From IMG/VR virus record IMGVR_UViG_3300042556_002263: DNA of 64,000 nucleotides. One strand, written 5' to 3'. Shown here in pieces: positions 12,499 through 59,239 of the stretch. This DNA is from an uncultured virus (IMG/VR IMGVR_UViG_3300042556_002263). Lineage: Duplodnaviria > Heunggongvirae > Uroviricota > Caudoviricetes. Position numbers and translations under genes: made by a program. A model generated the notes under the pieces. That model had not been told where the DNA came from. It ran no database searches and saw only the letters and a list, made by a program, of their open reading frames with translations. Each line of letters opens with the position of its first letter. Position 1 is the stretch's first letter.

Positions 12499-12703
12499 GG
12501 GCTTTCCGCCACCGTGACCACATTAGATAACACTTCTCCTCGGTCGGGGAGTCCCGCCGGTGATAAATCCTTCCCTCATAGGCTTATCCACAGGCGGGGC
12601 TCTCTCAGGGGGTGTGTCAGGGTTGTTTATCCACAGGAAAGTTGTGGATAACTTTCTTCGGTGGAATGTTGTGAGTACGACCCTTACAAGCCACAATGGA
12701 GTT

Positions 12704-31031: not shown

Positions 31032-31922
31032 CTACTTGTTGCGGGCGTTGCGACCCGCTCTCTCAGCAGCCTCTGTGTTTCCAACGAACTGATTACCCGC
31101 GCGACTTCCCTTGATTTTCTTTCTATTCGTCGCTGCCCTCTGCGCAGGTGTAAGACGACGCCAAGCACTAGCAGGAAGATACCTACGAGTGCCACCTTCT
31201 CGTATCGCTGGTTTGCCATCTGATGTTGTCCATTTCTCCCGTGTCCACTTCTTCAACGAACGCTGAGTCTTTCGTGGCTTACCCTTGTAGCCACCCCCAG
31301 CCTTTCTGTATTCAAGAGCAAGCAACTGCGCTTTTCTGGCTGACCACTGCCCCGGCTTTCCGCCCTTGCTCCCAGCCATTATGCGATTCTTTATGTTCTC
31401 CCTGAGTTTCGGCTTTGTGTACGAGCCTTCCTTGAACTCAACCGTGGGGGCATTGGACAGGAAATCTTTGGTTGACAGTTCAACCCAGTCAAGCGACTTG
31501 CCCTTCACCGTGCGTGTTTGTATGCGCGCCTCTTTGAACAACTCGTCAAGATGGTTTTCGTCCCTGACTTTGCCTACGCGAACATCCTTGTAGCCAAACC
31601 TATTTATGAACTTTGACGGGGTGTAATACTTTTCTTTGAGCCACTCATTCCAGTAGTCTTCCGACTCCTTGCTGGATGAATGTGCTGTGTAGACACCGTT
31701 TTCGTCATTGGTTGGCGTTACATACACGAACAGCACCGAGGCTGTTTCGGGAAGCGGTGGACCAGATGTAACCAAGAAGTAGTAGGTCGTCTCGTTCTGC
31801 GCTTCTTTCTCTGCTTCCAGAATCATGTCCGACAACTCTTGGCGTAGTTCTGGGTCCGTTGTCATAGATAGTTGGTTGTACAGGTTGTACAGAAGTACTT
31901 TGTTCTTGTCGTCAGAAATCAA
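31032..31922 (-). CDS. phage protein with C-terminal DUF5872-like domain
   Basis: YTKP.LRE.IK....GSKGGKPGQWSARKAQ...Y...GGGY. Confidence 0.7.
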   Translation of the reverse strand: MISDDKNKVLLYNLYNQLSMTTDPELRQELSDMILEAEKEAQNETTYYFLVTSGPPLPETASVLFVYVTPTNDENGVYTAHSSSKESEDYWNEWLKEKYYTPSKFINRFGYKDVRVGKVRDENHLDELFKEARIQTRTVKGKSLDWVELSTKDFLSNAPTVEFKEGSYTKPKLRENIKNRIMAGSKGGKPGQWSARKAQLLALEYRKAGGGYKGKPRKTQRSLKKWTREKWTTSDGKPAIREGGTRRYLPASAWRRLTPAQRAATNRKKIKGSRAGNQFVGNTEAAERAGRNARNK

Positions 31923-34900
31923 AACGATACTCCCCTTCTTGACGCTGCCATTGCTTTAAGTCTTTCAACAGGTATGCCGAGGAACTTAGAAAGCATCTCA
32001 TAGTGGGCATCTACAAGCCCACGCTGTGCCCTGCCCTTAGGGTAAAAGATTTCTCTCATTGCCTCAGCAATGTACTCTAGTCTATTTGAAGCGGCGTAGT
32101 TGCTAATCATTTTTGCTATTTCTTTTTCGCTACTCGTTAGTTCAACGCCCCTACCCGACTTGACTCCAGCCACAAAGTCTTCCTGTAGTGCTTTTCTAGC
32201 ACTTTCATTCATCTCTACAGCCATTGCGTGGATTGTATGAGCAAGTTCATGGACGATAACTTCCTCAGCGCTTAGATTACCCATTCCGTACTTGTTCATT
32301 CCTGTCGCTATGTGTTCTGGGAATGCGAGTACACCCATGCCAGTATGGTATTGACCCTGTGTTCCAAACCAATTCTCAGTCATACTCAGGAGTGGTGATT
32401 CAGTCCCGCCATTACTTATGTTCCATCTTGTAACAAACATTGGTGGAATGTCAAACTCGGAAAGAATTCTTGCGAATTCAGGATTTGAGTCAAGAAGTTT
32501 TCCGAGCCTGTCAGCAAGAAGTTTTTGCTTTTCCCAGTCCACCTCCATCATCTCCAGTTTCTTCATAGTCTTCTTCACGCCCTTACCCTTTGAGTATGGG
32601 GAATTCTCAAGAAGCGACCTCACCTGCTCAGGGCTTGTTGGGATAGCACGCCTTACGAACTCGCCAGTACTACTTGGCGCAGGGCGGGGCTTGTCTGTAG
32701 CACCATAAATCTTGACCAACTTTCTTGACTTGCCACGCGCTGAAGCAAATCCCTGCGGTGCTGATGCGGAGGCGAATCCACCCCTTTGAGGGGCGTCATC
32801 ACGACCACCTATTGCTAACCACAATATTTCAGTAATCTCGTCGTCTGACATCTCTGCGAGTTCGGTCCACCTAGAAAGAACTGATTCAACACCTTCGTCA
32901 ATTTCTCTGTAAAGATACGCAGAATCAGATGATGTCCAGGAACCTTCACCTACTTCGGATAGCAGTCCAGTCGAGTGACCTATGACCTTTTGTGATTCAT
33001 CACGTATTCTTCTGTGTTTCTCAGCAATGTCAAGTCTGTAGTCTTTCATCGCCTCTTGAACTAGTTGGCGTATTTGGTTCTTGCTCAAGTTTCCAAAAGA
33101 CTGTAGGTCCATACTTCTAGCAAACAAAAATCTGTTGGTTATCATGTCTGCAACAGATTGATTGCTCTCTGGGTGCAGTGCATCTCCGTGGTCTATCGGG
33201 ACTATTGCTATTGAGCCATCTGGCTGAGCAGCCAAGAGATAGTTGCCAGAGTTCCTATCTCTATTGTCCATAACTGCATCAATAAGACCTTGGCGAAGTG
33301 CGGATATTGGGCTTATGTCTTCGCGGGCTATGTTGTTGTTCTTCAGGTTGTCGCCGTCTCCAATTATGCGACTATGTCTATTTTGTGCCAACTCTGTAAC
33401 AAAAGCGATTCCTGGTCTTTGTTCTGGAGCCCGTCCATCTTCCGCACCAGCACCAAGGCTGCTTCTCCTTACTATTCTTATTGGCATTGGTGCAAAGCCA
33501 AGTTCTTCGTTGATTGTGTTGGCAATAGCCTCTCTCACCGCCCCCTGAACAGAATCTTCGGCGCTGTGCTTGACTATTGGGATGACTTCATCGCTTTTGC
33601 TCCAATTGACAGATGCTTCAAATTTGAGTCCTAGATACCCACCAGTCTTTGTGTCCCGCAAACGAATCATTCCATGAACACCGCCACCAGCGGCTAGGAA
33701 CTCAAACCTGCCTCCTGCCTTAGCGAGTCTCCATCCACTTTCTCTCTCGCCAGGAATTTGGGAGGCATTGCGCAGTATTGACTCAATCAAGAACTCATCT
33801 GGAACTTCCGAAAGATTACCGCCGAACTCAACATAATCCATTGCTGATTCGAGCGAATCGAGTTTTACCGTCTGACCAGTTCTTGGGTGTACAACCTCAT
33901 TGCCAACTTTCACCCTCTTTTGTGTTGTTCCAGAAGCATCGGCATGTGCCACCTCTGTATTTGGCATTTCTTTTCTGAGTTCTATTCCGTGTGTTGTTGT
34001 TTTCCACTCTTGTGTACTGGAAGCAAAACCACGGTGACGAGCATCTGCGTTGACTATCCTAACTAAATCATTATTTGTTGCGTTATTTAGCGTGTCTCTG
34101 TTGCTTGATGCGAACCCGCGCGGACGGGGCTCAAGCGGCGAACCGTCTTTGCCAAATGCTGGCGTCTTGTCGATGTCCCTCTCAAGGATGTCTACTACGT
34201 CCCAGATATCGCCTTTGTAGTTGATTGCTAGGTTCATCAACTCTATTAGACTATCGCCACGCTCTCCATCAAGACCAAGCGCTCTGTTGGTCGCCTCTGG
34301 GCGCGCTTGTGAAAGCCTATCGACTACATAGTTTCTTAGTATGTGTCTTGCTACTTGCTGAATTTCGCCTTCTGTAAGAAGTTGTTTCACTTCACTATGC
34401 TTTAACAACGAGAGAACTGCAAGACCATTGGCAAACTCTCCGTGTCTATCAAAGCCCCTACCAATTGCTATGTGCCCTATTGCTTCGTGTAGAAGTTCAA
34501 ATGTATCTGTGGCTCCACCATATGCCTGTGAGCCATCAATGAGAGAACCTACATACAAAGCAGCCCAAGAAGAATCACCTTCAAGTATTCTGAGTTCGTC
34601 ATCAAGGTCAATATCATCTGCTACAAGGGTTCCACGAAGACGGCTTGGAGTGTCTTGTCTCTTGGTCTTTCCGATAATTGAGTCAATTCTTTCTGAAGCC
34701 CATTGTGTGAACTTCTTCATGCCAGAATCTCTATCCGACATAGGGCCAGAGCCGCGTCTTGCCATCGGGTCATTGCCTTCTCGCAGTTTGGCAATAACAG
34801 CCTCAACCGTTTCGTCACCAGGAACTTCTATTACTGACCAGTCTCTTCTGTCTTCTAGGAGACCAAAGAACGCTGGGTGTGGGTCAGCCATAATCATTGG

Positions 34901-37900
34901 GATATCGTCTGCGCTAATGACTATGCGCATGGAGTCAAGAAGACGGGACTTGTGTTCGTCTACTCCCTCTGCGAACTTGTATCGCTTCAAGCGACCACCA
35001 GATATTGCCTCCAACGAACGGGTAAATGTTTCTTTAGCGACTCTTGCGGCTTTACCAGTGAGACCCATCTCCCGTACGACAGCATCGCCAGTATCTTCGT
35101 TTTTTTCCGGGAGGTTCATTTCTGTAAGTCGCCTTGACTGTCGAACCACATCTCTGGTTGCAATCTTTACACGCTCGTCGCTTGATGCGCTAGCAAATCC
35201 TTTACTCGCTCCAGAATGTGTATTGCCATCATCAAGAAGAGCAATAAATTCTTTCATGTCTTCGTCGGAAGAACTACCGTGTAGGGCGTCATAGATTGAT
35301 TCAGACCTGTCCCACCAATATGTACCTTCAGGGAATTCTGGAGACTCTTCTTCTCTGTCTCTTGAGAATCTGTCTTCAATTCTATTTTGTTCTAGTGAGT
35401 AAAACCATTTTCCCTTTAGGGCGAGAATATCCGATTCTGAAATATTATTTTCTTCTGCCCATCTATCGATAAGCGAAAACATCGCAAGCATGTTTGCCCA
35501 CTCGCCGTGTCTATCAAATCCACGACCAGTACCCATGTGACCCCAAAGGTCATGGGCGTGAAGAAAATCGTCTTCTCCGAATACATTTCGTATGCTTGGG
35601 TCAGACAGGTCGTTTAACCCATGAAGATACTGACCAATCCACAAAAAACCATTTGGAACATTGCTCTTTTGTCCAACATTTGTTTGATTCTGTTCTGCTA
35701 TTTTGTCATACAGCCTCATCGCCCATTCGCTGAATTCAACTTCTCTCTGAATAATTCGCTCTTGTGTTGCGATTCGTCTATCACGTTCTGCCTGGTCGCC
35801 CCGCTCCCGTGGCAGGAGAATTTTTGCGCCCATGCGTTCTAGTTGCGCTTTTATTTTTTGCAACGTTTCTTCTCTTGGAGCCCTTACGGCACTCCAATTG
35901 CGCTTATCTGGGAATTCATCTACAAGCAGCGGGTGTGGTTCTGCAAAAATGTAAGGTATTCCATCTTCTCCAACTGCTATGCGAATGGAGTTAAGCAGTC
36001 TTTCTTTTTGAGATTCTAAAGATGGGTTAACTGGACTTTCCAGCACATCTTTACCAGATGGCAACAGTTCTTCTAGTATTTGTCTTTCTTCTTCAGACAA
36101 CTCTAGTTCATTTGCTATTTCTTCGCTTGTTTTACCTTGTGGGTTTACTGCGTCAGAGCGTGAAGCGAAGCCAATGCGACGCTCTATTGACTTGACTGTT
36201 TCTGCTTGCTTTGGGTCTTTTATGAGACTTGATAGGTCACGGCTACGAGTTGCCGAAACAAAACCCCTACGCATAGATGGGTTTCTTTCCTCTGTCTTAA
36301 AAACACCGGTGGGCTTACCGTGTTGTCTGTCTATGTGTCTAAGAATCGAGTTCTCATCCATTGACCCAAGCCTGTATTCCATTGCGTGAACACCGTCATT
36401 GTTGCGGAAAGGGTCAAGCCTTACATCTGTACCCTCTGTACCAGCCCTGTTATTGAATACTTCATACATCCCGTGACCATTCTCGGAATGTAGACCGCCC
36501 CTGTGTACTCCGAGGTCTGCTGCGACGGTTGTAACAAAGTCGTCAAATCCAGGATAGTCAACATTGTTGGGCGTTCCCTTAACACTCATGGTGCCAAACT
36601 CATCCTGTAAAATACTGCTTGTTATCTTCTTTCTGTCTTCATCAGCCTCTACTCTTCGTACAACAGTAGAGCCTTTTCTTAGTTTCAGTTTCTGACCTGG
36701 CTTTGGTGTGAAGTATGTATCAACTCCGAGAAGGTTGCCGAGAGATTCAGTGCCGTTGTCGTCAAGAACATCTGTCAACGGAACCATAATCAGATAGCCA
36801 CCGCCAGTTTGTTGCCAACCCCAATGCTCCTCTACGGAATGGTTGAGTGTGAAGTGGATTGTTTCTCTGTCTACATCTATGTACTCGCTAGGGGCCCCGA
36901 GTACAAGATTGCCGTCTTCGTCATACTCTGGTTCAAACTCTGTCCATCTAACAAGAACCAGGTCTTTTGCGGTAGGCGTGTATGAGCGAGCCTCTTCGTC
37001 AGAGACATACGCACTCTCTTCGCCATTTTTTCTCTTTCTGGCGTAGAGAATGGAATGAGCCATAACACGAAGTCTGTCTTTAAACCCTTCATCAGAGCGA
37101 ATTTCTTCGGCAATGCTCTTCGCCTTTTCTATCTCCGCCTGTCTCTCTCTGTCTGCTATCTCCCTACCAGCAGCGGCGTATCTATCGAACTCTTTCCTGG
37201 CTTCTTCATCACCCATTGTGGCGGCATACAGAAGTGCTGATATCTCTGTTGAGTTGGTTTGTTTGTAGTCGTCCGTGAGTTGACCATCGCTAGTACCCGA
37301 ACCAATGTGCGCATAGAACCAGTCAAGGGCAACCTTGTCCCCCTCTGGTGTTCCTCTTTCTAGCCCAGTAATGTCATACGGGTTAAGTGGGACATTGCGA
37401 GCGTCACCAATGTCCATACCATGTCTGTCCTGTACACCGAATACAACCTTTTCACCGTTAATGTCGTAAATAACCACCCCGAGAACACTTCTTGAGGTTT
37501 GGTCCTTACCCCACTCCTCTGAGCCAGGGTTATGGCGAATGGTGGTCGGATTAAAGCGACCTACTATTTCTTCTCTCACATTCCCGGAAGAAGAGGCAAA
37601 CCCACGACCTCTTGGTCTAACAATTCCTTGCTCCACCCGTATTGTTTCTAAGTCTTCATCATTTAGACCGTTGAGCATCGCTCTGCGTAGTCTCTTGCCC
37701 AACTTCTGGTAGTGGTATACATCTCCATCCGTGGCATCACGAACCGACGGGTCCCGTCGGATACGGTCGCTGACAATATCCATCAGGATGTTCATGATGT
37801 CCATTGCGTCCGTATGGGTTATCTCCCCGTTGTTGAGTCGCTCTATTGTCTGGTCAATCCATTCGCCGTCAAGAACATCACGGGTTCTACCCGTCATCAT

Positions 37901-40900
37901 TCTGTCCTCTATGTACTCTCTGTTTTCTTGTAGCGTTCGTATTGCAGATTTGGCAACCCGTCGCTCTGGTCTGATAATTCTGTTAAATCCCATCTCCCTA
38001 GACGAAGAAGCAAAGCCGGGTAGGTTCACTTTGTCCATGGACGATATTGGCATGGAGTCAAGCACGGAAGCCTCGTTAAGCATTCTCTTTCTTGCCTCTG
38101 GCGAAAGATTCATTGTTGGCTCGGGGACATCACCAAACATTGTGTACATGAGTGATTCCGTACGATTGTTTATCTCTCTCGTTAGTTTGTCGTGCGCTGG
38201 GTCGGATAACTCAAGGAGCCTTCTTTCGTTGTGTAGTTTCTCTATTTCACGCATGCTTCTGTCAATAAGAACCATCTCTTTGACGGCACCCATTGACTCA
38301 GATGGGTCTATGTTTATAAACTCGCCCTTGTCCACATCAAATACATCGGTGTGTTCTACTTCTATGTACGGTATTCCGTTTCTTTCGGTTTTGGATACGA
38401 CCTTGAAGCGACCACCCGTGATGCTTTCTATCGGCATATCTCGCCGTTCTCCGTCAAGAAGAACGCTGTCAAGAAGGTTGCTGTCGAATACCCGTGCGCC
38501 CATCGCAAGTTTTACTATCGCAGACTTTTCACCACTGAAACTTCTTACATTTGGAACCTCTTCTGGCAATAGCGCTACTGGTGAGAATGATGTAAGTGGC
38601 ATGTGTATTGTGTCGCCAAGTTCTGCTGAGAGTATTTCATTCTTTTCACCCAGTTGCGACATGGTGTGGTACATCGGCACAGACGAGAATGTTTCGGAAT
38701 CCCTGATTTCATCCATCATTCTCTTTGCTCTTGTCGCAGACGAACGGAGTTCGGAAAGCGTGTTGCTGTCTAGTTCTGAAACGGCCCCGCCGTTCAGTAG
38801 TCTTCCTATTCCCGTGTTTCCAACGAGAAATGACGGTACTTCTGATGGTTGTTGTAGACCCATCATCATTCCAGATATGTGCTGAATGTCGTAGTGTGAT
38901 TCAGAAGCCCATTCTGTGTAGGCGTTGGAAATCTCTGGCATGAACCTATCGCCAGGTATCTTGAACTTGTAGTCCCCAAGAGCAAAGTTTGTATGACCTT
39001 CGGTGCCCCTCCGTACAGTCACCCGTCGTGCTTGTTTCTCTATTGGCTGCTTTATTGATGCGACATTGCCGAGAGCGTTTGACGAACGCTTGGGAACAGT
39101 GTCTCTTGCTCTTTCCACCCGTGAAGCCCGTGATGCGGAAGCAAAACCAGGACTCTCGCTTGGCGTTTCCCATGGCTTGACCATTCCACTTGTGTCATAT
39201 GGGTCTTTGTGTTCGCCAAGTATGTACAGATACGCAGCAGTCATTTCTGGAGTTATGTATTCATCCCTGTAATCAGGGTCTGGCTGGGACATAAGCGCAC
39301 CAAGTTCTGCCCATGTTTCTTGTGGGTTTTTCTGCGCGTATTGACCAGCGAGACCAGCAAAAGGGAGTCTTGGGTCACCGAATATCTGTGGGTAGTCCTC
39401 TGCTAGACCACGCCACACATCTTCCATCTCTACTGGGTCCCAACCGTATCCCCAGAAAAATGCTGATTGGTGTTCAGGCTTTGATGGGTCCATGTTGTTT
39501 AGGAGCATCGCTTGGATAACGTACCCAGCACCCATCTGGGGGTTGTTCATTATTCTGTCACGACCACGATTTAGCACATCTAGTTCATAGTCACCCAAGC
39601 GGTCGATTATGTCTGTTGGGTCTATCCCAAGTTGTTGAGCAGTAAGAACGGCAGTCTTGGCAAAGTTTTCGAACTGCCGTTGTGGCTGGGGGATTACTGA
39701 GAGAGACCCATTGCTTAGGCTTTCCTTGGCAAAAGCCATTCTTTCTAGCGCATCATCTATCGGTAGGTTGGGGTAAAGATAGGCGGCTCGTGAGTATCTG
39801 TCTCCAGATAAAGCCTCCAAATCTCTTCTATTGAGACCAGCAACTCGTGCGACCCTGTCACGCATTCTTGGGGCGCTACTCAAACTTGACTTTATTCCAA
39901 ACAGTGACGACCAGAACTGATGATGGTATTCGTGTACGAGCGTTCCCTCCAGTGAGGTGGAGAAGTTGGAAATGTAGTCCCTTCCGAGCATGTCTGATTC
40001 TGGATACGCAGTAACGCCACCGGGTTTTGGTCTACCCATACTAACCCTGCGTGTTCTGCCGAACTTAGGCATTTGTTTGTCTGGACGGAATAAACCACGC
40101 CACTCTCTGTGGTGGACATTGATTACTGTAAATAAACCGTGGACATTAAATCCAAGAACACCCTGTGAATCAACGATTGCGTCAAATAGCAAATCCATAG
40201 TCTGTTCATCAGTATTAAATACGGCTTGACCAGAAGCAGGGTCAACATCAGACCTCTGTATTGGGTATGTCATCGGGTTGCGTCTAGTGCCGACTGTTGG
40301 AATAGGGATTGTTTGATTATTTCTGCGAGCGTCTCTGTATTTTTGTACTGCGTCTGGGTCTGTTGGGATAATCGGTGACGAACCAAACCTGCGAACCGTC
40401 CATAGGAACTGCGGCGACTCATTTAGTGTCTTTTCTAGCCAGTCTTCCATTCGTGCTACTCCTTCGGGGGAGAAGTCAAAAAGGTCGCTGTCTATCATTG
40501 TTTCTACAAGTTCTTTTACTGCTGCGAGAACATGTGGGTCTGGGTTCGTGTTACCCATGAGCATGTGTTGTAGCGAAAGGTTTACCAAGTCCTCTCTGCT
40601 TCGTGGAACCAACGCTTGCGCTATTTCTCGTGGTGTTGCGTCTTTTAGCCAGTCCACACCCTTGAGTGGTGAGTCGTCCTCGCCCGAGAACGCCTTAGCC
40701 ATGTCTCTTGTTCCGTTTTCATCCCGTGAAATAGATAGCGAGGCAAATCCTCTCGCCCGTGGAGCGTTTTGTGATGTATCAACTTCTATTTCTAGAACAT
40801 CTAGATTGTCGCTACTGCCAGTAAGGAACTGTATGTCTGCTTTTAGTGTCGGGCTTACCCGTGCTTTTCTGTCTGGGTCATTGCTAACCAACGCTGAGTA

Positions 40901-43048
40901 GCCTTCGGCAAACATCTCTACTGGTGCTGTCTGCCCGTATTCACTAAGAACATGGGGAGGTCCACTTTCCCAGTCAAGTTCTTCGCCCTTCTTTATCGCC
41001 CGTTCCAGTTCGGCAGACTGTCTCCACCGTCTATCGGCTCTATCTGGTTTGTAGGTCGGGTTTTCCTTACGCCATTTTTCGTGCCTGCGCTTGTACACAT
41101 AGCCCTTTATTCCCTTCGGATTTACTTCATCCCAATTCATGCGCCAATACCACCCAGCGAGGTATCTAGCCTCCCTGTTTGGATGCGCCATCTGCGATAG
41201 GTAGTTGATGAAGTGTCCGTATTCGTGCGTGAATGTGCTGTGTGGTGTCCACTTATCGCCAGTCTCTAAATACCACTCTGTTCCCGGCAGACCCTTGCCA
41301 CGCTCGCCTTCGCTAATTCCGTCTACGTCAGCAAGCAGGTTTCTATTTATCATTGTGAACATAGAACCTGTTGAGCCATTAAAGTAGCCACCCATAGACA
41401 AGTCGTCCCTGTTGCTAACCAATATCGGTGGCATTCCAAATGTTTTCACATGTTCAAAGAAATCAGGGTATTCACGGAACGCTTTTGCCAGTGACGCTCT
41501 TGCTTTCTCTACCATTTCTGGCGAGAAGTCAAATACCTCATCAGGAGAAACATCACCTTTGTGTTTTTTCGCTCTTCTCTGCGCGCGCTTCCAGTTAGTA
41601 CCCTTCCCCTTGCCAATGTAGTGAAGCGCTCTCTTCAGGTCTAGTTGTGTGCGTTCTTTCGCATTCATGCCATCCATTTCTTTTTCTACATGGTCAGCAC
41701 CCATGAGGTCAATGAGCCATTGCGACCAATCTTCTAGCGCACCAAGTGCTTCTTCTGACGAACCAGGAACTGACGCTTCTGCCAACTGCTCTGGTGTCAT
41801 GTCCGTCATGTCGTCACTTGCTGGGAGTGTGCGTGAAGCAGAGAAGAACCCCTTTTGTGGTGTTTTTCTACCCGTAAGGGTTTCCATCAATATGCGAGTT
41901 TCTGGATTGAGTGATTTTTTGTCTTCTGTATGGACATACTGCGTGAACAGTTCAGCAATCAATTCCGATGGCTTACTTATTGCATATGCGGATGGAGGGA
42001 TTATTTCAACATTTGAGTCTGCCCTGCGTGTTCCCGTTTTGTCGTCCCATGGCATGTATTTGCGTTCTCTTGGGTCAGCAATCTTCATTGCGATTCTCGA
42101 CAATGATGTCCGAATCTTTCCCCTGTTAGCGTTGTCGTTCAGTTGACCCCATGTTGCGTGATACATAAGAAACATTTCTTCACGAACATCAGGATTAGGG
42201 TGATTCAGTATTGCCTGATAATGAAGATAATGACCATACTCATGAATAAAAGTATTTGGAAGAGCCTCTTTTAAATCGTCCTGAAGAAAGAAATCTGGTA
42301 TGTCATCTGCCCCTTCAGGAGTAAGAGTATCTACTACATCTGTTCCAAATTTCTTTAGTACAGTATCTTTTATAGCACCAAATGAAGTACTCCAAGATGG
42401 TTTCAATTTCATATCTAGTTTCACTTCATCTTGTGAAAGCGATATGAGTACATGCTTATATGAAGTTCCAGCAACTCCTGGCATTGGTTTAACTACTGTT
42501 GCTGGTATTCCAAAACGGTCAATAAACTCTCTCATTTCTGGATTGTTATTTAGCATTCGCACCATCATGGAGCGTGCTTTAGCAATGGTTTCCGCATCAA
42601 AGTCGCTTGTGTTGAGTTTCATCTCATAGAGCAAGTCATTGATATTGTCGAATCCATTGGGTAACCCGTGGACGCCTACATGCGCTGTTATGTAGGCAAT
42701 GAGGTCTGATGGGTTATCAGGTATCGCTACCTCTGCTATCTCCTCATTGGTCTTGCCTACTGTCCAACCACTAAACGAATCGCCCCATTTACCCGTGGCA
42801 CTTGCGAAACCTCTTGACAATGCTGAGACATTGGATAGCGCTGCTGGTCGCTCAAAGGGTGTGTTGTCCTGTACTAGACCGTCACCATCACCGTCGTATG
42901 CGTTAGGGTCAAACACTGCTGTCCCTCTTGCGAGTGAACCAAGGTTAGAGCCTAGTGCTTTCGTATCTATTGACTCAGACGATTGCGACCTACGGCGTCG
43001 CTTAGCACGAGCCGTATCGTCAAGGTTGATGTCATAAGAGAAGGGCAT
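31919..43048 (-). CDS. ~3700-aa polyvalent protein (multiple zincin HExxH, ART-like and kinase-like modules)
   Basis: 11-kb open frame; probable leaderless ATG (TACAAT-N6-ATG) at 43048; 13 GFxS linkers. Confidence 0.85.
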   Translation of the reverse strand: MPFSYDINLDDTARAKRRRRSQSSESIDTKALGSNLGSLARGTAVFDPNAYDGDGDGLVQDNTPFERPAALSNVSALSRGFASATGKWGDSFSGWTVGKTNEEIAEVAIPDNPSDLIAYITAHVGVHGLPNGFDNINDLLYEMKLNTSDFDAETIAKARSMMVRMLNNNPEMREFIDRFGIPATVVKPMPGVAGTSYKHVLISLSQDEVKLDMKLKPSWSTSFGAIKDTVLKKFGTDVVDTLTPEGADDIPDFFLQDDLKEALPNTFIHEYGHYLHYQAILNHPNPDVREEMFLMYHATWGQLNDNANRGKIRTSLSRIAMKIADPRERKYMPWDDKTGTRRADSNVEIIPPSAYAISKPSELIAELFTQYVHTEDKKSLNPETRILMETLTGRKTPQKGFFSASRTLPASDDMTDMTPEQLAEASVPGSSEEALGALEDWSQWLIDLMGADHVEKEMDGMNAKERTQLDLKRALHYIGKGKGTNWKRAQRRAKKHKGDVSPDEVFDFSPEMVEKARASLAKAFREYPDFFEHVKTFGMPPILVSNRDDLSMGGYFNGSTGSMFTMINRNLLADVDGISEGERGKGLPGTEWYLETGDKWTPHSTFTHEYGHFINYLSQMAHPNREARYLAGWYWRMNWDEVNPKGIKGYVYKRRHEKWRKENPTYKPDRADRRWRQSAELERAIKKGEELDWESGPPHVLSEYGQTAPVEMFAEGYSALVSNDPDRKARVSPTLKADIQFLTGSSDNLDVLEIEVDTSQNAPRARGFASLSISRDENGTRDMAKAFSGEDDSPLKGVDWLKDATPREIAQALVPRSREDLVNLSLQHMLMGNTNPDPHVLAAVKELVETMIDSDLFDFSPEGVARMEDWLEKTLNESPQFLWTVRRFGSSPIIPTDPDAVQKYRDARRNNQTIPIPTVGTRRNPMTYPIQRSDVDPASGQAVFNTDEQTMDLLFDAIVDSQGVLGFNVHGLFTVINVHHREWRGLFRPDKQMPKFGRTRRVSMGRPKPGGVTAYPESDMLGRDYISNFSTSLEGTLVHEYHHQFWSSLFGIKSSLSSAPRMRDRVARVAGLNRRDLEALSGDRYSRAAYLYPNLPIDDALERMAFAKESLSNGSLSVIPQPQRQFENFAKTAVLTAQQLGIDPTDIIDRLGDYELDVLNRGRDRIMNNPQMGAGYVIQAMLLNNMDPSKPEHQSAFFWGYGWDPVEMEDVWRGLAEDYPQIFGDPRLPFAGLAGQYAQKNPQETWAELGALMSQPDPDYRDEYITPEMTAAYLYILGEHKDPYDTSGMVKPWETPSESPGFASASRASRVERARDTVPKRSSNALGNVASIKQPIEKQARRVTVRRGTEGHTNFALGDYKFKIPGDRFMPEISNAYTEWASESHYDIQHISGMMMGLQQPSEVPSFLVGNTGIGRLLNGGAVSELDSNTLSELRSSATRAKRMMDEIRDSETFSSVPMYHTMSQLGEKNEILSAELGDTIHMPLTSFSPVALLPEEVPNVRSFSGEKSAIVKLAMGARVFDSNLLDSVLLDGERRDMPIESITGGRFKVVSKTERNGIPYIEVEHTDVFDVDKGEFINIDPSESMGAVKEMVLIDRSMREIEKLHNERRLLELSDPAHDKLTREINNRTESLMYTMFGDVPEPTMNLSPEARKRMLNEASVLDSMPISSMDKVNLPGFASSSREMGFNRIIRPERRVAKSAIRTLQENREYIEDRMMTGRTRDVLDGEWIDQTIERLNNGEITHTDAMDIMNILMDIVSDRIRRDPSVRDATDGDVYHYQKLGKRLRRAMLNGLNDEDLETIRVEQGIVRPRGRGFASSSGNVREEIVGRFNPTTIRHNPGSEEWGKDQTSRSVLGVVIYDINGEKVVFGVQDRHGMDIGDARNVPLNPYDITGLERGTPEGDKVALDWFYAHIGSGTSDGQLTDDYKQTNSTEISALLYAATMGDEEARKEFDRYAAAGREIADRERQAEIEKAKSIAEEIRSDEGFKDRLRVMAHSILYARKRKNGEESAYVSDEEARSYTPTAKDLVLVRWTEFEPEYDEDGNLVLGAPSEYIDVDRETIHFTLNHSVEEHWGWQQTGGGYLIMVPLTDVLDDNGTESLGNLLGVDTYFTPKPGQKLKLRKGSTVVRRVEADEDRKKITSSILQDEFGTMSVKGTPNNVDYPGFDDFVTTVAADLGVHRGGLHSENGHGMYEVFNNRAGTEGTDVRLDPFRNNDGVHAMEYRLGSMDENSILRHIDRQHGKPTGVFKTEERNPSMRRGFVSATRSRDLSSLIKDPKQAETVKSIERRIGFASRSDAVNPQGKTSEEIANELELSEEERQILEELLPSGKDVLESPVNPSLESQKERLLNSIRIAVGEDGIPYIFAEPHPLLVDEFPDKRNWSAVRAPREETLQKIKAQLERMGAKILLPRERGDQAERDRRIATQERIIQREVEFSEWAMRLYDKIAEQNQTNVGQKSNVPNGFLWIGQYLHGLNDLSDPSIRNVFGEDDFLHAHDLWGHMGTGRGFDRHGEWANMLAMFSLIDRWAEENNISESDILALKGKWFYSLEQNRIEDRFSRDREEESPEFPEGTYWWDRSESIYDALHGSSSDEDMKEFIALLDDGNTHSGASKGFASASSDERVKIATRDVVRQSRRLTEMNLPEKNEDTGDAVVREMGLTGKAARVAKETFTRSLEAISGGRLKRYKFAEGVDEHKSRLLDSMRIVISADDIPMIMADPHPAFFGLLEDRRDWSVIEVPGDETVEAVIAKLREGNDPMARRGSGPMSDRDSGMKKFTQWASERIDSIIGKTKRQDTPSRLRGTLVADDIDLDDELRILEGDSSWAALYVGSLIDGSQAYGGATDTFELLHEAIGHIAIGRGFDRHGEFANGLAVLSLLKHSEVKQLLTEGEIQQVARHILRNYVVDRLSQARPEATNRALGLDGERGDSLIELMNLAINYKGDIWDVVDILERDIDKTPAFGKDGSPLEPRPRGFASSNRDTLNNATNNDLVRIVNADARHRGFASSTQEWKTTTHGIELRKEMPNTEVAHADASGTTQKRVKVGNEVVHPRTGQTVKLDSLESAMDYVEFGGNLSEVPDEFLIESILRNASQIPGERESGWRLAKAGGRFEFLAAGGGVHGMIRLRDTKTGGYLGLKFEASVNWSKSDEVIPIVKHSAEDSVQGAVREAIANTINEELGFAPMPIRIVRRSSLGAGAEDGRAPEQRPGIAFVTELAQNRHSRIIGDGDNLKNNNIAREDISPISALRQGLIDAVMDNRDRNSGNYLLAAQPDGSIAIVPIDHGDALHPESNQSVADMITNRFLFARSMDLQSFGNLSKNQIRQLVQEAMKDYRLDIAEKHRRIRDESQKVIGHSTGLLSEVGEGSWTSSDSAYLYREIDEGVESVLSRWTELAEMSDDEITEILWLAIGGRDDAPQRGGFASASAPQGFASARGKSRKLVKIYGATDKPRPAPSSTGEFVRRAIPTSPEQVRSLLENSPYSKGKGVKKTMKKLEMMEVDWEKQKLLADRLGKLLDSNPEFARILSEFDIPPMFVTRWNISNGGTESPLLSMTENWFGTQGQYHTGMGVLAFPEHIATGMNKYGMGNLSAEEVIVHELAHTIHAMAVEMNESARKALQEDFVAGVKSGRGVELTSSEKEIAKMISNYAASNRLEYIAEAMREIFYPKGRAQRGLVDAHYEMLSKFLGIPVERLKAMAASRRGVSF

Positions 43049-43319
43049 GGTTTCATTGTAGAACACACCGTCAATGTGTGCGTGAAGCGAATGACATTTC
43101 GTGTGTGCGTGTGCGTATGTGTGTGCGTACTCATTCGCATGTCAAGCATTGCGTGACTGCGTGTGTCATGGCGTGTCGTAGCGTGTGTCGTGGCGTGTTC
43201 GTGACACACTTCGTGCTTGCGTCGTGAGGTGTGTAGCCTAACACATTACTGTACCTATTACCATACCCAATGCCGTACCCATCAACCCATAGCCGTTAGG
43301 TATTGTTAGGACGACCTAA

Positions 43320-54211: not shown

Positions 54212-55549
54212 TCAGTCAGGTGCGCCGTCGAAAGTCACCTTAACGAATGACTCTGGACGCTTGACTGCGAGAGCGAGACGCTGCTCGGCGAGGATGACGA
54301 TTGCGTTGCGGACGAAGAAGTCAGCATGCTGTTCCGAGATTCGGATGTTCGCCTGCTCGCGGTCGTACAGTTGAGCACCTGTACCGAATGCGCCGACAAG
54401 TGCGACACCCTCGGTCATTGCTGGTGACTCTACGACTGGCAGACGCCAAACCTTTGGCTCGCCACCGAGAGCGACAGACACAGCGACCAGGTACTGGCCG
54501 TTTGAGTCCTTGGTCAGTTCGATGTCTTCCCAGTCGTTAGGGTGGAGAACCACGCCTGACGGCTCGTAGTAGGCAAGGAACGACAGTGTCGCTGCACGAC
54601 GGATTGCGTCAGCCTTTGTGTCGGCTACAGGAAGGGTTGCACCGTCTGACCAGTCATAGGTCTGGATGCCGCTTGTCTGCAGAACGCCGGTCAGGTTCTC
54701 ACCGTTGCCGTCGCCATGAAGAATCTGAGCGTCCTCCTGAAGACGGAGACCGTACATCAACTCGTTGTCGATGATTGAACGCAGTTGTGGCTCGTCGGCA
54801 AGAACGTTGCGGTGAGCAGCCTCCCAGTGAGCAATGGTGCGAACTGGAGCCTGATGACCCTCGAACACCATTGAAGACTGTGGCTTAGCAGCGAAGTTCG
54901 TGTTACCGGCGTTTCTTTCAGCCACAGTAGCAGCGTTGTTTGTGCCACCACCGACTGAGGTGAAGCCGAGCATACGGAAGTACTCGATGACCGCAGCAGT
55001 TGTGGTGCGGCTTGGGAAGAGGTCGCGAACTCTCTTGACTCTCTGCGGAGGCATCACCATTGGGTCACGCTGTACTGAACCGAAGTCAGCAGCAGCACCG
55101 CGAGCAAGTGTGCCCGAAGGAGTTGTGGTGTAGATGTCCTTGAAACGGAGGTCTGAAGTGAGCGAAGCGCCAATCTGGAAAGGCGAAGGCATGTTTGCGC
55201 CGTTGCGTCCACCGTTAAGAGCCTTGAACTCTGGTGAAGCGAGGAACAAATCGCCGATGCTCTTGTTGCCGATGCCCTTAACCGAGTAACCAGCAGCAGC
55301 GGCAGCAGCAACTGACTCTGCAGGAGCCTGTGAGCCCCAGTTCTCTACGGTGGTCATTGCCTCAAGGCCCTCGATGAGTCCCTTGATTTCCTTGATGTCG
55401 GCCATGTTCTTGTCGAACGCGGTCTTTTGTGAAGCAGAAACGACAACTGTGCCGTCTTCTACGCGGAATGAGTCTGCAATCGCCTTGTTATCGGCCATCT
55501 TGGTCCGAAGGGCTGACTGCAATTCTGAAAGTCTTGCTTGGTCTGACAT
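54212..55549 (-). CDS. major capsid protein, HK97 fold
   Basis: VRTIAHW...LAD.PQLRSIIDNEL.YGL...EDAQIL.GDG.G.NL.G; LHP.DW; F.RN...ILAEQRLAL.V.RP; SD aggag. Confidence 0.95.
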   Translation of the reverse strand: MSDQARLSELQSALRTKMADNKAIADSFRVEDGTVVVSASQKTAFDKNMADIKEIKGLIEGLEAMTTVENWGSQAPAESVAAAAAAGYSVKGIGNKSIGDLFLASPEFKALNGGRNGANMPSPFQIGASLTSDLRFKDIYTTTPSGTLARGAAADFGSVQRDPMVMPPQRVKRVRDLFPSRTTTAAVIEYFRMLGFTSVGGGTNNAATVAERNAGNTNFAAKPQSSMVFEGHQAPVRTIAHWEAAHRNVLADEPQLRSIIDNELMYGLRLQEDAQILHGDGNGENLTGVLQTSGIQTYDWSDGATLPVADTKADAIRRAATLSFLAYYEPSGVVLHPNDWEDIELTKDSNGQYLVAVSVALGGEPKVWRLPVVESPAMTEGVALVGAFGTGAQLYDREQANIRISEQHADFFVRNAIVILAEQRLALAVKRPESFVKVTFDGAPD

Positions 55550-55667: not shown

Positions 55668-55916
55668 TTATTCGGAATGTTTTTTATCTCTAGAAATAAA
55701 AGGCTTGAAGAGGTCTGAAGTCACCGTGCTTGAATCGACGTCAATTAAATCAAATAAATCTTCAAAAATGCCGTCAATCGTAGGCTTAATTTCCTCAAGT
55801 GCGTCTGCCCGCTCGTCTTGGCCAGTTGCCCTCAAAACAGCAATGAATCGTTCGATTTCATCTATTTTCATTTTCTGAAGTTCAGAAGGAGTTGCTTTCG
55901 AATTAAACGATGTCAT
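55668..55916 (-). CDS. small acidic protein
   Basis: ATGA overlap with 1108-aa gene. Confidence 0.55.
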   Translation of the reverse strand: MTSFNSKATPSELQKMKIDEIERFIAVLRATGQDERADALEEIKPTIDGIFEDLFDLIDVDSSTVTSDLFKPFISRDKKHSE

Positions 55917-58900
55917 TTCTTCCTCATTGTCTTTATTTCCAAACCTGGTGTTCCCTGTCTTTCTGGATAGGATAGACCAAGCAAGGCTATCCATCTTCCC
56001 CTCGGTATGGACGGGAATAGTTTTTCCAATAAATCAACAGTTGATTTATCTATTGTCGAAATATTATTGTTTGCCCTTGTTCTTTCGGAGGGTTTTGACG
56101 TAATAGTTCTGCCAACCTCCGCTATCAATTCATGCACTCCATATCTGGCATATTCAGAATATCTCTTGGCAACATCATCAAATATTCCGCCTCTGTCTCG
56201 AATTATGTCAGTAATCATGCTGTCTTTTCTGCCAAATAACATTTCGTCTATTAGGGCATCTAATGAAAGCGTAATTTGAAGCATGTTGTTTTGAAGTACG
56301 TCTTCTACCATTTCAAGCGCTTTTGCTTTAATCTGCGGTTCCGTAAGTCCTGTATATTGCTTTTTTACTTCGCGTATTGCGTCTTCCAAGAATCTTGCTT
56401 CTATATATTTTGGTAAATCTACGCCTGCAAAAATTTTTCTTACCACTGCTCCTGGGTCACTTGCTAATTGCTCAAGACCTTTTATGTATGTATCAAATCT
56501 TGCATCAAAAGTTTGAGGGTCTACCGCCATCATTACCGAATCTAGATAATGAAACCATTCATGTCTCAATGTTTCTTGAACAAAATCAAACTTTTTGTCG
56601 TCAAAACTTGAGCCAATGGCCTCATGTTTGCCCTTTTTTATGTGCTCTCTGCCGATAACAATAAGTGCTGCAAATGGAGTATGGTATGCAGATGCATTGC
56701 CCATTGGACCACCCTCTGGCCTGCCATCCCCATTAATCATCATTGGCAAACCAAACTCCTCAACCAGGCTTCTGAATGCAGGATTATCAGTAAGTTCGTC
56801 TTCGAGAACTTTTCTAAGTTTTTCTTGCTCACGAGGGTCATATCCAATATTGGAAAGTATTGTTTTAAGTTTCCAATTTCTATTGCCTGAATCTGAAATT
56901 ATTGAATACCTTAATGCTGGTATTGAGTCAAAAAGTCTGTCGTAAAACTCGTCTTCCGTTTCGTTGCTTCCCCTTATTGGGACAAACTGTTCAACAACTT
57001 CCCTAATTCCCTTCGGTGTATCAAGTCTTCCGCGAAGAGACAGTCTTTCTATGCTTATTGGAGATGGTGGACCAGCAACCGCACCCATTGCCTCCTCTCT
57101 TTTGTAGACCCCACCATCTGCAATCATCTGAAGTTTCTTTGACAGATATACGTCAGTATTTTTAGGTGAACCGTCTTTATGTTTTGTAATTCTGTTGTTC
57201 AGCCTTTGTATAAAACGCTGAATTCTTGCCTCTATCTTTCTGTCTATGCCTGGCAGTGTGGATATAGACGTCTGAGCCCCAGTTCCCGGTTGTGTCCCAA
57301 ATGGACTTGACCCACCAACTCTCCCCTGCTGGCTTCCTGGTTTATTTTTAGGAGGCGTGTATCTAGAGCCTTTTTTCTTTTTAGAAGAAGAAGCAAACCC
57401 CATAAACTCATCTGATTCTTTGAGTGCTTCTTGCGCTTCATCTGAAAGAACTGATTTATCGCCAGGCTTTGGCTCTAGCGGATTACCGTTCATAAACTCA
57501 TCAAGTTTTTTTTGGTCAAAAACTTCTAGTTTTCCATCTTTGAAGGATGCCAATAGTCTCGGTGGTTTTCCCGGCTCTACCTCGTTATCCCATATATAAA
57601 ATTCGTCCACTTCACCATTAGCAACAGCAGAAGAAACCATTCTTGGAATAGAGCGAGCAAAATGGTCTGTTTGGTCAGGTATTTTTCTGCCTTGGTCTTT
57701 TTCTCTTTGTCGCAATCTGCGTGATGCCTCCGCCTGCGAAACATGAACCCAATGCGCAACAACTCTGTCGCCATTCCGTCGTGCTTGTGCAATTAATGCT
57801 CTCTGTCTTGTTGAGCCAGCACCAGTTGCAACTACGTCAGAACCATCTTTTCTTGCATCATCAATTGTATGCTGTGCTGCCCTAAGTGATTCATCATGGA
57901 CCATTGGCGCACCAGCGCCATCGCTATATCCGGGTAAGCCCATTTTTATAAAATCTGGGTCAACATGGGCGGCTTCATCTCTTGCTGGAACAAGACCTTT
58001 TGGAACAAGATGGTCGTCTAGGACCGTTGTTTTGCCACCTCCAGTTGTTCCACCAATCAAATATGTTGTTCTCTGTTTTTTGCCTTTATTTTTTGGCTTA
58101 ACAAGACCGCGAATTAGTTGACCCATTTTCTTTCCACCGAGGTTTCTGAATGGGTTTGTCGGCGATGCGTCTGGGTTTTCCAAACCTTCTATGCCAAAGT
58201 CTTCGCTCTTTATTGGCTTTGAAGTTGAAGCAAAACCTCTCGTGCTTCTGCTTCTCACGGAGAAGTTTTCAATTGGTTCACCAAATAATTGTTGTCTGCG
58301 GGAAGATGATGTTTTATCAAACCACGAAGCAACAGCATCTATTGAAGATTGAGAAATTGGTTTTTGTTCTGACTGGGCCGGGAGTTTTGGTTTTGGAATA
58401 TTTGGTCTTTCAAATGCTGAACCATCTTGCAATAGGCCGTCTCCGTCTCCGTCCTCAGCATTCGGGTCAAATCTTTGTGTGATTGTTCTTGCTGCGAATC
58501 TAGACACTCCAGAGATTTTTGGACCAATAGCCTTGCCCATTATTTCCTCGACAAGACTCTTTTTTCTTTTTTTCAACTCTTGCGATAAAACAGTCCTGAT
58601 TACCTTCTGGGTATTCTTTTCTTGATTTAAGCGACCAAGCGATGTCATGCCGGTTAGGTTGTTGTAATCCGTCATGTTTGTACATGGCATCCAGACTATT
58701 TTTCCAGACTTAGACATTCTTCTACTGACGCCTATGCAGCCAAGTTGTCTTGCTCTTCTACGCGCAGATTCTATGTCTGTAAATACATCGGTGTCATTGT
58801 CTCTCGGAGAGTACTGCTCTGACTTTTCTTCAAGAGATTTTGTTGCAAAACCGCCAGGAACATTTGGTGGATTTGGATTTCCGTGAAATATCCCCGGTAT

Positions 58901-59239
58901 ACGACCGCCGCTTACTATTCCAACCGGATTTCCGGGCTTGCCATTCCATGATGTTAGCCCTACGCCTGGCGTGCTGTTTATTCCGCCAACGCCTCTTTCG
59001 CGTAGGTTTTCCCAGCGTCTTTTTTTTCTTTTGCCCTTCTTTTTTCTTCTAGAAGAGCGTTTTTCCATCTCAAGTATTGTTGTTCTTGACTTAACAGACA
59101 TGGGTTCAGTGAGCGACATGTACTGTTTTATTGAGGAACAGGGAATCCATTCACCTCTTGTGTTTTGATGCGCGCCAGAGCAACCAATCTGGGCAGCCCG
59201 TCTTATTGCAAGCAGTTTTGAAACGAAACCATTTTCCAC
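55913..59239 (-). CDS. 1108-aa modular protein: 2x DUF3721-like, DGDGDG tag, zeta-toxin-like P-loop kinase, zincin
   Basis: RRA.Q.GC.G...W.PC twice; GGTTGGGKTT..HVDPD.IK; LRHEWFH..SEYA..E..AE. Confidence 0.8.
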   Translation of the reverse strand: MENGFVSKLLAIRRAAQIGCSGAHQNTRGEWIPCSSIKQYMSLTEPMSVKSRTTILEMEKRSSRRKKKGKRKKRRWENLRERGVGGINSTPGVGLTSWNGKPGNPVGIVSGGRIPGIFHGNPNPPNVPGGFATKSLEEKSEQYSPRDNDTDVFTDIESARRRARQLGCIGVSRRMSKSGKIVWMPCTNMTDYNNLTGMTSLGRLNQEKNTQKVIRTVLSQELKKRKKSLVEEIMGKAIGPKISGVSRFAARTITQRFDPNAEDGDGDGLLQDGSAFERPNIPKPKLPAQSEQKPISQSSIDAVASWFDKTSSSRRQQLFGEPIENFSVRSRSTRGFASTSKPIKSEDFGIEGLENPDASPTNPFRNLGGKKMGQLIRGLVKPKNKGKKQRTTYLIGGTTGGGKTTVLDDHLVPKGLVPARDEAAHVDPDFIKMGLPGYSDGAGAPMVHDESLRAAQHTIDDARKDGSDVVATGAGSTRQRALIAQARRNGDRVVAHWVHVSQAEASRRLRQREKDQGRKIPDQTDHFARSIPRMVSSAVANGEVDEFYIWDNEVEPGKPPRLLASFKDGKLEVFDQKKLDEFMNGNPLEPKPGDKSVLSDEAQEALKESDEFMGFASSSKKKKGSRYTPPKNKPGSQQGRVGGSSPFGTQPGTGAQTSISTLPGIDRKIEARIQRFIQRLNNRITKHKDGSPKNTDVYLSKKLQMIADGGVYKREEAMGAVAGPPSPISIERLSLRGRLDTPKGIREVVEQFVPIRGSNETEDEFYDRLFDSIPALRYSIISDSGNRNWKLKTILSNIGYDPREQEKLRKVLEDELTDNPAFRSLVEEFGLPMMINGDGRPEGGPMGNASAYHTPFAALIVIGREHIKKGKHEAIGSSFDDKKFDFVQETLRHEWFHYLDSVMMAVDPQTFDARFDTYIKGLEQLASDPGAVVRKIFAGVDLPKYIEARFLEDAIREVKKQYTGLTEPQIKAKALEMVEDVLQNNMLQITLSLDALIDEMLFGRKDSMITDIIRDRGGIFDDVAKRYSEYARYGVHELIAEVGRTITSKPSERTRANNNISTIDKSTVDLLEKLFPSIPRGRWIALLGLSYPERQGTPGLEIKTMRKK

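Follow-up and report, generated by a model that had tools for sequence, protein, structure and literature searches.

A recurring GFAS joint in a giant protein of an uncultured tailed phage, and its possible place in head-targeted cargo polyproteins

A giant gene punctuated by a four-residue joint

The window analyzed here is a 64,000-nucleotide stretch of DNA, part of a tailed-phage genome from an uncultured virus (IMG/VR record IMGVR_UViG_3300042556_002263). It carries a giant gene on the minus strand (31919..43066; 3715 codons from a GTG at 43066) whose product is divided into modules by a recurring tetrapeptide, GFAS, which we call the joint. Residues of the giant protein are numbered from this GTG. 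Translation probably starts from the ATG at 43048, giving a protein of 3709 residues, identical to a record of the same length in the protein collection (P0005). The collection also yielded 34 giant homologs with lengths of 2518-3999 residues.

The joint is a repeat of the peptide and not of the DNA. GFAS occurs 11 times in the giant protein, against 0.058 copies expected from residue composition, and is its top tetrapeptide; the runners-up, RGFA and FASA (five copies each), are overlaps of GFAS itself. With one GFFS and one GFVS, the pattern GF[A-Z]S is found at 13 residues. A first-pass annotation of the window had listed these 13 places and proposed that selection acts on the peptide. All 13 were recovered at the positions it gave, and their 18-nucleotide contexts all differ, with several Gly, Phe, Ala, and Ser codons in use; it is from this that we conclude that the repeat exists at the peptide level. 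The motif is mostly preceded by R, K, P, or G and, at 11/13 sites, followed by S or A. Among the ten residues on each side, S (1.9x), R (1.7x), and A and T (1.4x) are over-represented, and L, F, M, and I are under-represented.

Within the window, the motif is largely confined to the giant protein and to two proteins of the head cluster. As the first-pass annotation had noticed, it recurs in a protein of 1108 residues (GFAS at residues 335 and 614) and in one of 1002 residues (GFSS at residue 298 and GFAS at residue 371). Elsewhere, among stop-to-stop frames of 60 residues or more, G[FL]AS was found only twice, both times as GLAS: in a 71-residue frame lying out of frame within the capsid gene, and in a 171-residue plus-strand frame opposite a 503-residue gene (92-1603). 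G[FL]AS is absent from the capsid, helicase, primase, and ribonucleotide reductase proteins of the window, and from the portal proteins of three related contigs (G002-G004).

The joints differ in how strictly they are kept. Counts per site come from an alignment of 25 homologs, and all coordinates are on the minus strand. Joint 1 (GFAS, residue 86; 42800..42811) reads GFAS in 10 homologs and GLAS in 10. Joint 2 (GFFS, residue 406; 41840..41851) reads GFAS in 14, GFFS in 5, SFAS in 3, and GFSS in 2, and joint 3 (GFAS, residue 773; 40739..40750) reads GFAS in 24 and GLAS in 1. Joint 4 (GFAS, residue 1307; 39137..39148) lies in a low-confidence segment close to the end of a structural model described below. 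Joint 5 (GFAS, residue 1684; 38006..38017) appears as GFAS in 20 homologs, GFTS in 3, and GFIS in 2, and joint 6 (GFAS, residue 1822; 37592..37603) as GFAS in 25/25, with variable flanks. Joint 7 (GFVS, residue 2268; 36254..36265) is the least conserved, being replaced by variable x-F-x-S in homologs and by GFAS at locus L004. Joint 8 (GFAS, residue 2299; 36161..36172) follows a 27-residue spacer peptide and is GFAS in 19/25, between poorly kept flanks. Joint 9 (GFAS, residue 2623; 35189..35200) is GFAS in 10, with (K/N)L(V/T/G)D at its column in 11, and joint 10 (GFAS, residue 2984; 34106..34117) is GFAS in 20. At joint 11 (GFAS, residue 3013; 34019..34030), FAS is invariant in all 25 homologs, and the site is a cassette insertion point in relatives. 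Joints 12 and 13 (GFASASAPQGFAS, 32741..32779; motifs at residues 3430 and 3439, 32768..32779 and 32741..32752, respectively) occur only in the 4-5 homologs that retain the C-terminal module.

Joints are predicted to lie in disordered linkers. Two AlphaFold2 models, A (residues 1290-2310) and B (residues 2290-3450), each with a 23-row alignment, cover 10 distinct sites; their mean predicted local distance difference test (pLDDT) values are 66.3 and 72.7, respectively. The first-pass annotation had held that a GFAS inside folded domains would speak against its reading. Instead, all ten modelled sites fall in coil segments with pLDDT below 50, between folded modules, and such segments make up only 243/1021 residues (24%) of model A and 176/1161 (15%) of model B. 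In model A, sites 1307, 1684, 1822, 2268, and 2299 fall in segments 1-29, 358-406, 511-538, 976-988, and 1008-1021; in model B, sites 2299, 2623, 2984, 3013, 3430, and 3439 fall in segments 1-15, 329-369, 694-731, and 1134-1161 (both in model numbering).

The modules between the joints include several recognizable folds. Modules 1 (residues 90-405; 41852..42799), 2 (residues 410-772; 40751..41839), and 3 (residues 777-1306; 39149..40738) are zincin-type, with the HExxH motifs HEYGH, HEYGH, and HEYHH, respectively, and are related to each other by BLASTP (E 1e-13, 2e-4, and 9e-6). The first of these values links modules 1 and 2, which are 24% identical. Module 13 (residues 3443-3715; 31922..32740) is a C-terminal zincin (HELAH) that matches Peptidase_M90 below the cut-off (E 2.4e-4) and has no detectable similarity to the others. 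The annotated family of four related zincins holds for modules 1-3, and the C-terminal member has only its weak Peptidase_M90 match. All four HExxH modules have a downstream Glu, and none matched a polyvalent-type MPTase model.

Modules 8 and 9 are helical paralogs (BLASTP, E 8e-26), in agreement with the two H(D/E)xxGH..GRGFDRHGE modules annotated earlier. Module 8 (residues 2303-2622; 35201..36160) has the form H-D-x-x-G-H...GRGFDRHGE and matches phrog_3170 (E 4e-9); in the ESM Atlas, its best score was 0.82, with ankyrin-like rows, below the level worth trusting. Module 9 spans residues 2627-2983 (34118..35188). Module 11 (residues 3017-3429; 32780..34018) has an atypical protein/lipid-kinase fold, as the first-pass label of a HipA/PI4K-like kinase had anticipated. 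VIA-align matched it to CotH kinase (Z 14.1; root-mean-square deviation [rmsd] 4.1, 262 residues aligned), PI4KII-alpha (Z 12.8; rmsd 4.6, 257 aligned), HipA (Z 11.4), and CtkA (Z 11.3), and Foldseek matched it to CtkA (E 1.8e-4). The kinase-fold match lies within residues 2991-3431, essentially from joint 11 to joint 12. PF00454 matches module 11 weakly (E 1.3e-3; 19.1 bits against a cut-off of 27.1) and is precomputed on 7/34 homologs.

The central modules are harder to assign. Module 4 (residues 1311-1683; 38018..39136) is a possible ADP-ribosyltransferase (ART). It had been annotated as ART-like, and what we find are weak Foldseek matches to Vis toxin and ART toxin-immunity pairs (E 0.1-0.5; best probability 0.75; template-modelling score 0.27-0.35 on the target) and no Pfam match. 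Module 5 (residues 1688-1821; 37604..38005) is small, helical in model A, and without a family match. Module 6 (residues 1826-2267; 36266..37591) is a well-folded alpha/beta module, with pLDDT mostly 80-92, for which no family or fold match was found. VIA-align of model A gave only helical-hairpin matches (Z 8 or less) and is uninformative for modules 4-6. Pfam searches of the whole protein and of 10 separate modules returned sub-threshold matches only, and no polyvalent-protein model among them.

Promoter- and terminator-like sites occur within the giant gene at chance level only, and thus give no sign of internal transcription units. Upstream, a TACAAT box ends 7 nucleotides before the ATG at 43048 (43049-43075, minus strand), and several homolog records (P0008, P0010, and P0013) preserve the frame upstream of this ATG (VFYNE..MPFSYD). 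Together, these two features suggest a conserved putative -10 element and possibly also a near-leaderless transcript. Beyond them, at about 43100-43125, is a CA-rich tract, acacacatacgcacacgcacacac. The gene had no match in 50,697 phage records, whether searched by megablast with the gene or by tblastn with the first 2999 residues.

Conservation, lineage variants, and module exchange

The joints are conserved in homologs, a further point on which the first-pass annotation had said that its reading could fail. They are retained down to 38% identity, and GFAS is the top tetrapeptide in 28/34 giant homologs. In three IMG/VR contigs that carry the gene at 62-88% identity, all covered joints are kept, and the GFFS and GFVS of the window are GFAS. 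Of the 11 homologs with (K/N)L(V/T/G)D at site 2623, those read through have RLGF(A/S)S about 35 residues downstream.

Modules are gained and fused at the joints. At site 3013, five homologs (P0024-P0028) have one more module, some 280-350 residues long and flanked by x-FAS on both sides. In addition, a 296-residue gene (31032..31922, minus strand; phrog_17747, phrog_14910, and a weak DUF5872 match) overlaps the stop of the polyprotein gene by 4 nucleotides, and its product is 78% identical to residues 3455-3695 of homolog P0009. This stretch is the joint-delimited last module of P0009; it follows an SGFAS joint and replaces the C-terminal zincin. Judged by these sequences, the joints behave like gene boundaries, with module insertion and gene fusion exactly at the joints. 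When shorter proteins were searched for free-standing versions of the modules, 8000 scored candidates gave three matches, which says little. Two of these are fragments with 100% identity, from contigs of 1.8-3.3 kb, and one is a 2004-residue protein on a 6.5-kb contig.

The motif differs between lineages, and it does so in concert. The 1002-residue protein retrieved 51 related IMG/VR loci, whose capsid proteins are 68-86% identical to that of the window. We counted G-phi-x-S in open reading frames of at least 400 residues on each contig. The window has 14 GFAS and no GLAS, while contig G003 (132 kb) has 25 GLAS, distributed across five proteins, and no GFAS. G004 mixes GFSS (8), GFAS (6), and GLAS (4); G005 and G006 have GMRS (15 and 13, respectively); and another contig has GLRS (8). 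The change can be followed at a single orthologous joint of the 1002-residue protein, which reads RQV(Q/E)GFASR in the window and G002, and RQV(D/N)GLASR in G003 and G004.

Punctuated giants extend beyond these close relatives. A full HMMER scan with module 8 found 50 relatives in 1.84 billion representatives; 35 of them are at least 1000 residues long, and only 7/50 are no longer than 1.5x the module. In 23 of the 28 newly found giants (at least 1000 residues), the top tetrapeptide is present at least four times. These tetrapeptides are GLAS, GLSS, GFSS, GLRS, GMRS, SMRS, SSRS, STRS, GSKS, LSSG, and, in one case, GANL. A short motif that shifts jointly in every cargo protein of a lineage points to one co-evolving, phage-encoded reader of the joint.

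Leader, companion proteins, and the protease of relatives

A leader peptide precedes the first joint. In the giant protein, its core (FDPNAYDGDGDGLVQDNTPFERP, residues 52-74; 42845..42913, minus strand) lies 11 residues before joint 1, within a match to phrog_7924 (residues 50-75), and follows the pattern FDPxAxDGDGDGxxQDxTPFERP. The 1108- and 1002-residue proteins carry counterparts before their own first joints, as 49-53% identical stretches with phrog_7924 matches. The peptide also stands before the first joint in the protease polyproteins of relatives, as FDP(N/K)AWDGDGDG(I/V)VQEGTPFxRP. It looks like a possible EF-hand-type (calcium) loop. The internal proteins of phage T4 and its Alt protein carry a capsid-targeting sequence, and by analogy we propose the leader as a candidate head-targeting peptide. 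The leader region had no tblastn match in the 50,697 phage records, where the low-complexity filter of BLAST may hide DGDGDG.

Some distant giants are punctuated differently. The module-8 giants P0034, P0035, P0054, P0055, P0061, and P0065 carry (R)LSSG 9-13 times in place of G-phi-x-S. The DGDGDG leader was not found in P0034 and P0035, which have one HExxH each. Such giants may use a different targeting signal.

The two companion proteins, which likewise carry leader and joints, lie in the head cluster, which is marked by an HK97-fold major capsid protein (54212..55549, minus strand; phrog_10, E 3.5e-63; PF05065). The 1108-residue protein (55913..59239, minus strand) has two DUF3721 repeats at its N terminus (PF12518, E 2.2e-12), both of which contain a Cys pair. 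There follow the leader (58403-58504), a GFAS joint (58226-58237), a Zeta-toxin/AAA_33-type kinase (PF06414, E 1.4e-12), a second GFAS joint (57389-57400), and a zincin-type tail (HEWFH). The 1002-residue protein (59577..62585, minus strand) consists of an N-terminal domain, the leader (61764-61841), two joints (GFSS, 61683-61694; GFAS, 61464-61475), and a C-terminal part. Next to it, a minus-strand frame that is open at the window end (62582-64000) encodes a homolog of a 667-residue head-cluster protein of G002. Since it has neither leader, joint, nor family match, this homolog may be structural rather than cargo.

The relatives encode a candidate reader of the joints. Peptidase_S78, the HK97 protease family, was found above cut-off in 5/5 related contigs, each time within an open frame of 1739-2295 residues. 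In the three frames read through, the S78 domain comes first, and the frame immediately follows the portal gene. The closest long relative, G002, has the gene order divergent terminase, portal (679 residues; phrog_2662, E 1e-71), protease polyprotein (1938 residues; phrog_80, E 8e-29 over residues 6-183), and proteins of 433, 1875, 146, 206, and 667 residues, followed by homologs of the 1002- and 1108-residue proteins and the capsid protein. After the G002 capsid gene lies an aspartyl/asparaginyl beta-hydroxylase gene (L005 18990-19559, plus strand; PF05118, E 3.8e-17), a family without a match among the window open reading frames scanned.

The protease polyprotein is itself punctuated. Its layout in relatives is protease, helical region, leader peptide, and then the joints of its own lineage: four GFAS and one GLAS in G002, nine GLAS in G003, six G[FL]SS and one GFAS in G004, and six G[ML]RS in G005. 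WGH(N/S)W and EWSIGY, whose His and Ser we take to be in the catalytic motifs of the S78 protease, are conserved in all five relatives and in gp13 of Brevibacterium phage Cantare. Four residues before the Ser motif, lineages with GFAS, GLAS, or GFSS have FFGQEQEWSIGY, whereas those with GMRS or GLRS have FFGEEQEWSIGY (L062/L063/L064/L052/L044). This Q-to-E change may be a specificity determinant, in a comparison of two clades that is confounded with phylogeny. A search of the S78 domain against PDB sequences with phmmer gave no match. Predicting a complex of the G002 S78 domain with its own leader and first joint gave a score of 0.00 in two runs without controls, which is no evidence either way.

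The remaining genes of the window suggest the host. They include those for WhiB, primase, helicase, SSB, ThyX, and ribonucleotide reductase. The closest cultured capsid proteins are from Cantare and Gordonia phages (47-49% identity), which, together with the WhiB-like regulator (27672-28025, plus strand; phrog_472, E 1.6e-17), makes an actinobacterial host likely. A protein with a LexA-type DNA-binding domain is encoded at 47451-47738 (minus strand; PF01726, E 7.5e-11). Two KTSC-domain genes (PF13619) lie on the plus strand of an early or unknown-function region, at 5115-5441 (E 9e-11) and 12560-13009 (E 3e-11).

A proposed cleavage scheme and its alternatives

We propose that the giant protein and its companions are head-targeted cargo polyproteins cut by the S78 protease, a reading to which we assign a probability of roughly 0.55. 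The leader would take the giant chain into the procapsid, along with the leader- and joint-bearing 1108- and 1002-residue proteins. There, the phage's HK97-type (Peptidase_S78) prohead protease would cut at the joints, and the freed modules would remain in the head until they pass into the host along with the DNA. The cut would probably fall just before the last Ser, because this is the only residue invariant across the Ser-ending variants (LSSG and GANL excepted). The parts of this proposal differ in strength. We regard it as quite probable that the joints are proteolytic sites. The S78 protease has an even or marginally better chance of being the cutting enzyme, and for packaging in the head and delivery to the host the odds are about level. 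The first-pass annotation had similarly read GFAS as a protease site in an injected, viral-style polyprotein. That interpretation is supported in part: at the modelled sites the motif does lie in predicted linkers, and it is conserved; the "four related zincins" and the "ART-like" module are backed only in part.

Cutting by the polyprotein's own zincin (MPTase-like) modules, in cis or in trans and either before packaging or after injection, is the strongest alternative, although we consider it unlikely. HExxH modules number five in the cargo of the window; all but one, that of the 1108-residue protein, belong to the giant protein. Furthermore, a survey of polyvalent proteins describes MPTase as their commonest hub, with up to five copies per chain, and proposes autoproteolytic release (PMC5512222). 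A capsid without the motif would also be easier to explain if the prohead protease were not the reader. However, the 1002-residue protein has a leader and joints without a recognized zincin, and other lineages have 9-13 LSSG joints with one HExxH, or six GSKS joints with none (P0053). The zincin copies are also far more diverged than the joints, yet each phage uses one motif, and the protease-bearing polyprotein of relatives has the same joints. A zincin acting in trans nevertheless keeps some probability.

Less likely again is that the motif stays uncut and the protein acts as one giant chain, with the joint as a linker element such as a docking peptide (for scaffold, capsid interior, or chaperone) or a modification site. 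There is a precedent in N4, whose virion RNA polymerase is a giant, zincin-containing polyvalent protein and, according to the survey, is packaged unprocessed (PMC5512222), and a motif bound by a single phage-encoded partner would also co-vary by lineage. Nevertheless, the presence of the motif at every module boundary, and at the gene boundary and cassette sites of relatives, fits separation better than docking, and the motif stands between leader and cargo in four different proteins.

Prp cuts between F and A in the L27 leader of Firmicutes (...QFF/ASKK). A host protease of this kind could be suspected from the resemblance of F-A-S to that site, but it is very improbable as the reader, since a fixed host enzyme would hold the motif constant and GFAS, GLAS, and GFSS occur among phages with capsids 84-86% identical, with GMRS and GLRS in the next clade; moreover, WhiB and the nearest cultured relatives indicate Actinobacteria, a phylum from which, to our knowledge, Prp is not known. 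Autoproteolytic domain motifs of the SEA and Nup98 types were considered and set aside as improbable because the joints are predicted to lie in disordered linkers.

Several observations weigh against S78-cut cargo polyproteins. The window has no prohead-type protease gene (Pfam on larger open reading frames), and S78 is also absent from its nearest record, the 31-kb fragment G001; the enzyme is therefore inferred from relatives. An HK97-type protease classically acts on the N-terminal region of the capsid protein, yet no conserved G-phi-x-S is present there, and the LFLAS of the window capsid is LFLNS or LFLDS in relatives. The capsid may escape cutting, the protease may accept sites of other kinds, or the joints may be read by a different enzyme. 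Some 11 kb separate the giant gene, which sits amid nucleotide-metabolism genes, from the head cluster. Among the papers listed, titles and abstracts showed no S78 specificity for such a site, no description of the GFAS motif in phages, and no study of capsid maturation proteases or mass spectrometry in this clade.

The evidence from linkers and relatives has its own weak points. Four of the ten modelled sites sit close to where a model begins or stops, and low pLDDT would be expected there in any case; the weight therefore rests on the six interior sites. In the alignment of 25 homologs, positional conservation is poor at sites 2268 and 2623. Conservation of the linker flanks (0.545, against a random mean of 0.596) was not significantly low, with 13% of permutations as low, nor was the number of inserted alignment columns near sites (501/1334) significantly high, with 8% of permutations as high. 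Finally, in gene 27 of Gordonia phage DalanDe, no tetrapeptide recurs more than three times and no leader is present, and the head proteins of Cantare and DalanDe yielded no recurring motif.

These two cultured phages nonetheless carry the closest cultured S78 domains (38-44% identity), in DalanDe gene 27 (1633 residues) and Cantare gp13 (417 residues). DalanDe gene 27 (L067 10635-15536), annotated as a capsid maturation protease, likewise fuses the protease to a long extra region, with long acidic low-complexity stretches, and its S78 domain lies near residues 1122-1296, not at the start. The protease is extended here in another way.

Proteases of the T4 gp21 family, including those of T4 and phiKZ/SPN3US, cut after Glu. 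In the giant phage SPN3US, the prohead protease cleaves eight head proteins, and the head holds a mass of ejection proteins (PMC7411985). The scheme proposed here resembles these systems in combining a targeting peptide with a short site read by a head protease, and in the delivery of the cargo (PMC5694885 and PMC7411985). The likeness to gp21 is an analogy only, since the protease of the relatives is S78 and the joints hold no Glu. In addition, most substrates in those systems receive a single cut or a small number of cuts, whereas here there are 13 candidate sites in one chain and a dozen modules.

The herpesvirus protease-scaffold fusion offers a parallel in layout. Its precursor, pUL26, cuts itself after Ala and before Ser or Thr, at YLQA-T and VQA-S (PMC4498786). 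The protease polyprotein of the relatives shares its arrangement of protease first, then an assembly (helical) region, with sites where a small residue precedes Ser (PMC4498786). In contrast, the match here is to Pfam S78, there are 5-9 sites as opposed to two in herpesviruses, and herpesviruses carry no effector cargo.

The giant protein belongs with the polyvalent proteins of phages and plasmids, in which 2 to 15 functionally unrelated domains occur per polypeptide (Iyer et al. 2017; PMC5512222). It likewise combines multiple unrelated domains: zincins, a kinase fold, a weak ART fold, and helical paralogs. As in the proteins described there, many enzymatic or effector domains are joined with interspersed zincin modules, and processing and DNA-linked delivery had been proposed (PMC5512222). 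Unlike here, that survey names no cleavage motif ("linker" occurs 0 times in its text) and favors the zincin as the enzyme (PMC5512222). The protein described here has a lineage-specific four-residue joint at each boundary, common to the S78-bearing protein of relatives. The new elements are a defined joint, its drift between lineages, a shared leader, an S78 protease carried by a polyprotein that is itself joint-punctuated, and the scale, with 13 joints in a single chain.

More broadly, we tentatively suggest, at somewhat less than even odds, that a large clade of uncultured, actinobacterial-type phages uses a private "cleavage code". Its head cargo would mostly be made as polyproteins, in which a calcium-loop-like leader and a G-phi-x-S joint are read by a polyprotein-borne prohead protease, the code drifting by lineage and the joints serving as recombination-tolerant seams. 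Putative cargo polyproteins in the window amount to more than 5,800 residues, and contigs of the clade reach 132 kb. If true, this would be an expression strategy like that of RNA-virus polyproteins inside tailed DNA phages, with effector cassettes and whole genes swapped at joints and with GFAS, GLAS, GFSS, GMRS, GLRS, and perhaps LSSG and GSKS as variants of the code.

The release of polyvalent-protein domains has been a conjecture without a defined site since 2017. The joints now supply a candidate cut site, the capsid protease a candidate enzyme other than the zincin proposed in print, and the shared leader a candidate signal for head targeting. Since the motif shifts in concert from one sister phage to another, it could serve as a natural experiment on the co-evolution of a protease and its site. 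If the joints are real, unannotated giant proteins from metagenomes could be split into functional units, and injected proteins would be marked as such.

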